Of a stretch of DNA of 46,302 nt, positions 36,653 through 37,079 are shown one piece after another. The notes under the pieces are model-generated. The model was not told the origin of the DNA. It searched no databases and saw only the letters and a program-made list of their open reading frames with translations. Position numbers and translations under genes: made by a program. The stretch covers positions 1 through 46,302 of the forward strand of contig CAYUDB010000002.1 in assembly GCA_964443405.1 (NCBI GenBank), written 5' to 3'. Within the stretch, counting starts at the first letter, position 1, and each line of letters begins with the position of its first letter. The stretch is from an uncultured bacterium. GTDB taxonomy: Bacteria; UBP14; UBA6098; B30-G16.

Positions 36653-37079
36653 TTTCAGTATCATAATTTTACGTGCTAATGTCAATATTTTAAATTTCAT
36701 GATAAACATTTTGTTATTTAATCTTAATTATTTGCTTATAAACGCGTTATACTCAAAAGCTTGTCTTATGATATCGATTATCAACATAAATATGCCAACT
36801 TTCAAGCTTAATTTATCAACTTTCAAGATTATTTGTAAACCTTTCAAGCTTCAATTGTCATCTTTCAAGCACAAAGTTCCATCTTTCAATCTACATATTT
36901 AGGCTTTTAAGCAAAATAATTCAAGTTTCAAGCATAAAAATTCATTCTACAAGCATCAATTTTGTTTTATCAATCTCGCTTGTCAAGCTTTCAATTGCAA
37001 GTATCGCATAAACAAGCACGGATATTGTTATTTTTATGTTATATTATGAGCTTTCAAGCTCAATGATTTATCTTTTAAG
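36653..37079. repeat. AT-rich degenerate 21-bp tandem array
   Basis: TTTCAAG-like cores at 36800, 36821, 36842, 36863, 36884, 36905, 36926, 36947, 36968, 36989, 37010, 37052 and 37073; weaker periodicity extends left to about 36653. Confidence 0.85.

Follow-up and report, generated by a model that had tools for sequence, protein, structure and literature searches.

What kind of element repeats a short word at exact intervals of 21 bp when the bases between its copies have diverged almost completely? The question is raised by the upstream region of a lipoprotein gene on a stretch of 46,302 nt from an uncultured bacterium of the GTDB lineage UBP14 (the window; contig CAYUDB010000002.1 of assembly GCA_964443405.1). 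The original prediction was that a TTTCAAG-like core recurs here every 21 bp, as would be expected of binding sites two turns apart on the same face of the helix. Positions given without a contig are those of the window.

Register and core of the array

The region 36632-37135, here called array B, was written as rows of 21, and one register runs unbroken through all 24 rows, which extends the run without a slip that had been predicted for 14 positions. The predicted presence of the core at 13 of the 14 positions from 36800 to 37073 is a fair count: ten of these rows are within one mismatch of TTTCAAG and 12 within two, the CAAG/CAAT-like part is present in 13, and row 37031 (TTTTTAT) is the only one to have lost the motif. 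The other bases of the unit are diverged, however the conserved block is wider than the seven bases first proposed, with a C at column 21 preceding TTTCAAG and a C at column 8 following it. Information is confined to columns 21 and 1-8; the twelve remaining columns resemble the local A+T-rich background, and spacer identity within the array is 0.40. The core is near-palindromic (CTT-N2-AAG), reading C-TTTCAAG-C on the + strand and GCTTGAAAG on the - strand.

The predicted periodicity is significant. For the aligned 21-mers, mean column information is 0.492 bit, compared with 0.097 ± 0.018 bit in 5000 first-order Markov shuffles, among which the maximum was 0.182 bit. Identity within the array is 0.49, 0.49, and 0.48 at lags of 21, 42, and 63, and approximately 0.27 at other lags; because similarity is flat with distance, this points to a maintained profile and not to recent duplication. 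Allowing one mismatch, the core occupies 13 of the 24 lattice positions and 0-1 positions in each of the 20 other registers. Pairs of the form TTTCAAG-N14-TTTCAAG (up to two mismatches) number 11 in the window, compared with 0.95 ± 1.0 in dinucleotide shuffles, and nine of the 11 fall within 36779-37079. There is also a weaker sub-period of 7 bp (0.23 bit at period 7, approximately 0.03 bit at periods 6 and 8), therefore each unit can be regarded as three loosely related heptamers, only one of which is strongly conserved. Neither a 10-11 bp harmonic nor A-tract phasing was detected in array B, identity at lags 10 and 11 (0.27 and 0.25) being that of the background. In degenerate form, the register persists down to the Shine-Dalgarno sequence of the lipoprotein gene (row 36632).

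Genomic setting

As predicted, array B is 5′ of a minus-strand gene for an Ig-like lipoprotein, in which a Big_5 domain was identified (Table 1). Read towards this gene, the order of elements is terminator, aperiodic spacer of 380 bp, 17 core rows, seven degenerate rows with a promoter-like site, Shine-Dalgarno sequence, and ATG. The terminator-like hairpin is 30 nt past the stop codon of the upstream gene, which it would close, and array B is therefore not likely to be the 3′ UTR of that gene. On the strength of consensus matches, array B appears to lie between a putative terminator and a promoter-like site.

Table 1. Features in and around array B, and members of the linked gene family. Positions are in the window unless a contig is given.
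Feature	Position	Strand	Basis or detail
Lipoprotein gene, 273 aa, lipobox (FIGC), Ig-like Big_5 domain	35801..36622	-	PF13205, E 8e-9
Last lattice core, CTTGAGAGG, overlapping Shine-Dalgarno sequence	36630..36638	-	Comparison with relative
Seven promoter-proximal rows, degenerate cores, same register	36632..36778	.	Row layout, relative
Sigma-70-like promoter candidate, TTGACA-17-GATACT	36657..36685	-	Consensus match only
Core-bearing rows, 17 × 21 bp	36779..37135	.	Rows, column information, lag spectrum, shuffles
AT-rich aperiodic spacer between array B and terminator of upstream gene	37136..37512	.	About 380 bp
Promoter-like site inside AT-rich spacer	37213-37241	+	Consensus match only
Terminator-like hairpin, 12 pairs then T run	37513..37541	-	Consensus match only
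Upstream gene, 1167 aa surface protein, C-terminal FlgD_ig domain, T9SS-sorting type	37571..41074	-	Pfam
Helical-bundle family members (G000)	C2:27373-28548, C46:2838-4010, C11:11687-12880, C72:8534-9679, C187:3545-4699		
Helical-bundle family members (G000), continued	C132:437-1624, C40:10812-11978, C53:12154-13335, C16:3869-5056, C91:9306-10472		

The promoter candidate is downstream of the core-bearing rows, approximately 35 nt before the Shine-Dalgarno sequence. The last strong core (36806) is approximately 120 bp from its -35-like hexamer (36685), with the seven degenerate rows between them, and the last core of all begins 16 nt before the ATG at 36622. In a Pfam scan of the neighbouring genes, the Big_5 lipoprotein, the FlgD_ig surface protein, and a GH57 enzyme were identified, and no Rep, parA/parB(R), or omega-like genes; likewise, no gene for a NarL/FixJ-type regulator was found among the adjoining genes. 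Elsewhere in the window, a perfect tandem duplication (246 bp × 2, 18809-19300) is contained within an ORF of 3100 aa (16937-26239).

A relative of the array and other lipoprotein orthologues

A relative of array B was found by protein search on a single 2.1 kb contig from a public run assembly (L022). The lipoprotein of L022 is 85 % identical and its 4-fold degenerate sites are 60 % identical, a silent-site divergence of approximately 40 %. The same lattice is present upstream, with 23 rows collinear with array B, and the last core (CTTGAAAGGAGG) is 16 nt before the ATG, a distance equal to that in array B. Across the core-bearing rows, identity is 74 % for the core columns and 45 % for those of the spacers; the seven promoter-proximal rows have 66-68 % identity over all columns, which is above that of the 4-fold sites. 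L022 also has TTGACA at the place matching the promoter candidate. Several rows are clearly orthologous (18/21, 18/21, and 16/21 identical), and spacer identity is 0.52 when rows are paired collinearly, compared with 0.36-0.43 when they are paired with a shift. At one place the pairing is shifted by a single row (19/21), which suggests that a gained unit was offset by a lost one, and both lattices have 23 rows.

An assembly artefact at k = 21 was rejected, by reasoning, as a de Bruijn graph cannot invent units with unrelated 13 nt spacers, and because the lattice recurs in L022, an independent assembly.

No array accompanies the lipoprotein orthologues in eight other genera of the same family, therefore the gene does not need an array. 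The original reading of the lattice as an upstream element of this gene is borne out by its position, but not by these distant orthologues. In other genera (L014, L017), a radical-SAM-like gene is directly upstream of the lipoprotein gene; in the genome of array B it is on another contig (C48:13103-14089), so that array B occupies a break in gene order. Peptide-pattern scans of genome and metagenome collections returned no relatives of the lipoprotein. One contig of 1480 bp (L024, ENA ERZ724083) has an ORF in which G+C-rich DHH-family sequence is fused to the C-terminal 126 residues of a lipoprotein orthologue; the orthologue part is 90 % identical, and the fusion is probably an assembly chimera.

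Selection on spacing

Three other arrays of the class, upstream of genes on contigs C16, C11, and C132, have close relatives on record and were used for a phase test. Upstream of the C16 gene, 552 bp were aligned with zero internal gaps at 41 % silent divergence, and the column-information profiles correlate at 0.96. Comparison of the array upstream of the C11 gene with three relatives shows gaps of 21, 42+42, and 21 bp. In the control, approximately 400 bp of ordinary spacer on the downstream side of the C11 gene, aligned for those genome pairs, there are six indels (18, 2, 1, 3, 13, and 46 bp), none of which is a multiple of 21. At C132:1700-3050, compared with L376/L377, the family protein is 89 % identical, the register and core of the array differ, and the alignment is filled with gaps, so that this array has been replaced in the relative.

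Small indels are frequent in spacer DNA and absent from arrays, which argues that core and spacing are constrained and that the sequence between cores is free. The original prediction had read strict spacing with free spacers as the look of same-face binding sites. That this is a selected state and not an accident is supported by the core and register kept in L022 and by the steps of 21 or 42 bp in the sister arrays. From these alignments, the core and the 21 bp spacing are under purifying selection, and the spacer sequence is not. An indel spectrum of 21 and 42 bp only is a simple diagnostic that is transferable to other genomes.

Coding potential

TAA, TAG, and TGA are all present in each of the six frames across array B, including the FK frame, for which stops had been predicted. 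A translated heptad ORF was sought in the orthologous region of the relative, where the six frames also have mixed TAA, TAG, and TGA at different places; thus, no single recoding rescues a frame. Nor was 3-base periodicity detected, lags 3, 6, and 9 being at background in the 39 strong arrays of the genome. A translated or recoded heptad ORF was therefore rejected, on mixed stops in all frames of two strains and the lack of 3-base periodicity. Array B is non-coding. On contig C40, a 161 aa ORF of LLNHKLH-like heptads (C40:14492-14977) is an open frame through a 21 bp array and is probably not a gene; heptad frames of this kind may be liable to annotation by gene callers.

Period-21 arrays across the genome

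The lattice had been described as independent of another in the window, which is not upheld. A period scan of the whole assembly (2.72 Mb, 331 contigs), in which each period was compared with neighbouring multiples of three, identified 103 period-21 regions (37 kb), array B being one of them, compared with 0-11 regions at periods of 12, 15, 18, 24, 27, 30, 33, and 36. Its core is also common to two other arrays in this genome and to one in the genome of another family. The cores differ from array to array (CGCG, GCTAC, ACGTGGA, TAGCGC, and others) while the period stays at 21, and they cluster beyond chance, with 124 pairs above the 99th percentile of the null and approximately 15 expected. 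Array B clusters by core with C12:5427-5842 and C46:4574-5020, and the 7 bp sub-period is found only in these three. Three other genera of the same family, sampled at 200-400 kb, have 0-2 weak period-21 regions, which does not exceed the numbers at other periods. Full-text searches of a collection of papers found no description of such arrays.

On genome-wide gene tallies, which rest on crude longest-ORF calls, 33 strong arrays have two reliable flanking genes; 11 of these are between convergent and three between divergent genes, compared with a background of 16 % for each. Arrays of the class are therefore not confined to upstream regions, for which a genome-wide survey had originally been suggested. 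For example, the TTTCAAG-type array on C12 lies between convergent genes, without a gene to control. The orientation of the core relative to the neighbouring gene is variable in the three comparable cases, array B being opposite in this respect to the arrays on C46 and in genome G025, which belongs to another family of the class. Outside the gene family described below, genes with a start no more than 300 bp from an array look, by eye, unrelated in function; they include those for RNase III, a CBS-domain transporter, a histidine kinase, a GH3-like enzyme, and a sugar kinase.

A small excess of identity at lags of 42, 63, and 84 (+0.0035, approximately ten standard errors) was observed in the coding DNA of this genome. 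It survives masking of the called arrays, with 46 genes at z>3 and one at z<-3, and is concentrated near arrays, for example in the GH57 gene (33446-35683) and at 38590-38900 in the 1167 aa gene. The signal is absent from three related genomes.

When three CTTGAAAG cores at intervals of 21 bp were searched for, genome and metagenome collections yielded 117 and at least 120 matches, respectively, with approximately 0.004 expected by chance in the genome collection. These loci (L025-L261, at least 237) are from many phyla and include many Nostoc, Microcystis, and Bacteroidales MAGs. Nearly all are homogeneous 21 bp tandem repeats, some coding for heptads (LESxxxx); as they are repeats of other kinds, the scans are uninformative on the array class.

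A linked gene family

The arrays are associated with a ten-member paralogous family of proteins of approximately 390 aa, without a signal peptide or a Pfam match (Table 1). All ten genes flank strong 21 bp arrays, and in eight of them the array is on the 5′ side. In an AlphaFold2 model (pLDDT 90), very long helices form an N-terminal bundle, after which come two FN3 domains. No DNA-binding fold was found in the family, FN3 being the sole match and the N-terminal domain having no informative relative. Among 1.84 billion representatives, the helical-bundle domain forms 190 clusters at 50 % identity, in which it is always N-terminal and the C-terminal parts are variable.

Other genera of the taxonomic family lack these genes, which are present in 2-25 copies in six genomes from another family of the same class. 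Two of these six genomes were sampled and contain period-21 arrays, mostly just upstream of family genes, at densities of 18 in 166 kb, and 9 in 131 kb compared with 2 in a random sample of 215 kb. In the genomes sampled, arrays occur only in lineages with the helical-bundle family. Array B therefore belongs to a lineage-restricted class of approximately 100 arrays that co-occur with one rare gene family.

Family genes are preceded by an array, 60-170 bp, an A-tract with TTGACA..TATAAT, a Shine-Dalgarno sequence, and the ATG, and the layout at array B is equal to this. Neither a helical-bundle gene nor a decayed remnant is found beside array B, and no remnant was detected in the spacer at 37136..37512. 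In gene-sense orientation, the TTTCAAG core precedes the C46 member of the family and a truncated member in G025, where an array of CCTTTCAAGG units is 80 bp upstream of the gene (hhalign probability 91 %). Which core type goes with which paralogue subfamily varies from genome to genome, with the exception of the CTTTCAAG core.

Interpretation

It is tentatively proposed, at somewhat less than even confidence, that array B is a lattice of phased, one-face protein-docking sites upstream of a sigma-70-like promoter. A near-palindromic word, an exact spacing of two turns, and free spacers are what docking predicts, and for this reason the reading is ranked first. All of the CTT-N2-AAG cores would lie on one side of the helix, exactly two turns apart, and a site-specific protein, probably a dimer contacting its neighbours, would load cooperatively along approximately 350 bp. 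Loading just upstream of the promoter of the lipoprotein gene would set its activity, by silencing or activation, and this factor would be bound as well at both other arrays of TTTCAAG type in the genome. We infer all four parts of this reading: protein binding, cooperativity, docking on one face, and the lipoprotein promoter as the target. If it is true, selection preserves only an 8-base word and a spacing of two turns over hundreds of bases, which would be the mark of a protein filament or oligomer that assembles along one face of the helix, and there would be approximately a hundred such platforms in a genome of 2.7 Mb.

Against docking are the lack of a DNA-binding fold in the linked family and the distance of the core rows, approximately 120 bp, from the -35 hexamer. 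Since cores differ among arrays, one reader protein cannot explain the whole class. Docking as a gene switch is further opposed by the 11 of 33 strong arrays that are between convergent genes and by the unrelated functions of the non-family genes that bear arrays.

It is possible, though on balance doubtful, that array B is one site of an undescribed system, in which 21 bp arrays, each with its own core, are present by the dozen and are read by the helical-bundle proteins or by a partner encoded elsewhere. Arrays without a family gene, such as array B, would then tie ordinary genes into a control or chromosome-organising network, and the arrays and their reader would be a new pair of cis-element and protein, not a variant of iterons or operators. 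The array class provides a testable DNA target for uncharacterised proteins, and would allow cooperative binding that depends on phase to be studied in a clean natural setting, in uncultured bacteria.

Array B is unlikely to be a structural element that is independent of any word, in which a two-turn motif gives a coherent anisotropic bend or flexibility. Selection would then act on the internal periodicity of each array, which might be a supercoil buffer, an insulator or domain boundary, or a segment that is curved or easily wrapped, recognised at most by a non-specific nucleoid protein. This would account for cores that are wholly different between arrays when the period is always 21, for arrays in long gaps of any gene orientation (convergent in 11/33, with 16 % of all gaps convergent), for the functionally unrelated neighbouring genes, and for the weak lag 42/63/84 excess in coding DNA, concentrated beside arrays and including the GH57 gene. 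However, there is no 10-11 bp harmonic and no A-tract phasing, a specific near-palindromic 8-mer recurs in three arrays here and in another taxonomic family, and related genera with similar genomes do not have such arrays.

It is less probable still that array B is a selfish or neutral minisatellite, generated by lineage-specific slippage or recombination in non-essential gaps, without a cellular function, its short core persisting as the microhomology that slippage uses. Proliferation is indeed limited to certain lineages, strains differ by whole units (21 or 42 bp), the one-row shift in L022 suggests gain and loss of units, the array upstream of the C132 gene has been wholly replaced in a relative, and array B is at a break in gene order. 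Yet small indels are absent from arrays and common in adjacent spacer DNA of the same genome pairs, the cores are conserved though the spacers are nearly saturated, and L022 retains both the 23 rows and the register as far as the ATG. Neighbouring units are also no more alike than distant ones, indicating slow turnover and old units.

It is very improbable that array B acts as RNA, transcribed as a long 5′ leader of the lipoprotein gene in which the CUUGAAAG repeats bind an RNA-binding protein or mimic the Shine-Dalgarno region. The overlap of the last core with the Shine-Dalgarno sequence, CTTGAGAGG here and CTTGAAAGGAGG in L022, both 16 nt from the ATG, would fit such a role, as would the enrichment of minus-strand promoter-like hexamer pairs inside array B (13 at 36657-37057, compared with 5.2 ± 2.5 in shuffles); the enrichment arises because the core contains TTGAAA, a near-consensus -35 hexamer. 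On the other side, the core-bearing rows lie upstream of the best promoter-like site that is also conserved, and a putative terminator lies before array B. The gene-sense RNA does not fold beyond shuffles (z = -1.46, 11/100 shuffles fold as well), C46 and G025 carry the core in the opposite orientation to the adjacent gene, and the exact spacing of 21 nt has no obvious RNA rationale. The only known RNA family found in the window by Rfam is a tRNA (2492-2564).

An origin as decayed or recoded heptad-repeat coding sequence (7 codons = 21 nt) is scarcely credible, despite the heptad-sized period, the reading of CTT-GAA-AGN as Leu-Glu-Ser/Arg, the real coding arrays with this word in other bacteria (L079, L091), and the fewer stops in + frame 1 (FKxxxxx) than in other frames, as TAA, TAG, and TGA occur in every frame, at places that differ between array B and L022, 3-base periodicity is lacking, and conservation follows the DNA column (an 8 nt block) and not the codon position.

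Comparison with known systems

Iteron arrays of theta-replicating plasmids and chromids (P1, F, R6K, and pSC101 type) usually have 3-9 units, in which most of the unit is conserved. Array B resembles them in its direct repeats, approximately two helical turns apart and upstream of a gene and promoter, and in that different arrays have different words at equal spacing. Unlike iterons, it has no Rep initiator gene, DnaA boxes, or origin context alongside, it has 17-24 units with about 8 of the 21 positions conserved, and there are approximately 100 arrays on its chromosome.

In Bordetella, the Pfha and Pptx promoters have BvgA~P dimer sites 22 bp apart, all on one face of the helix (PMC7250471). 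Rows of as many as six weak sites, with heptads as half-sites, act jointly upstream of a sigma-70 promoter, and the arrays abut the -35 element and span approximately 130 bp (PMC7250471). The two-turn spacing, the 7 bp sub-period, and the near-palindromic core of array B are similar; however its core rows extend over approximately 350 bp and end approximately 120 bp from the -35-like hexamer, its spacing is 21 and not 22 bp, and no NarL/FixJ-type regulator is linked to it.

Partition centromeres and omega operators (F sopC, R1 parC, pSM19035) are long arrays that are coated cooperatively by a small protein, and the omega repressor reads consecutive 7 bp heptads. Array B is likewise long and regular, with short sites, but parA/parB/parR and omega-like genes are missing from its neighbourhood, good conservation is limited to every third heptad, and it is chromosomal, with many arrays per genome.

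In bacterial VNTRs, such as mycobacterial MIRU, units are near-identical over their full length and copy number changes fast. The arrays described here share with them the head-to-tail, intergenic arrangement and the strain differences of whole units. Array B, by contrast, combines a conserved core and phase with spacers that bear almost no resemblance to one another, and its relative has an equal number of rows at 40 % silent divergence.

Helically phased A-tracts give prokaryotic DNA a periodicity of 10-11 bp (PMC516772, PMC3431218). The periodicity of array B is similarly locked to the helical repeat, in intergenic DNA, although it is exactly 21 bp, without a 10.5 bp component, and is carried by a specific 8-mer instead of A/T runs. 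Array B thus lacks one or more defining features of each of iterons, BvgA arrays, partition centromeres, VNTRs, and A-tract curved DNA, and fits an undescribed class of its own genome, that of non-coding arrays with an exact 21 bp phase, a short core, and diverged spacers.
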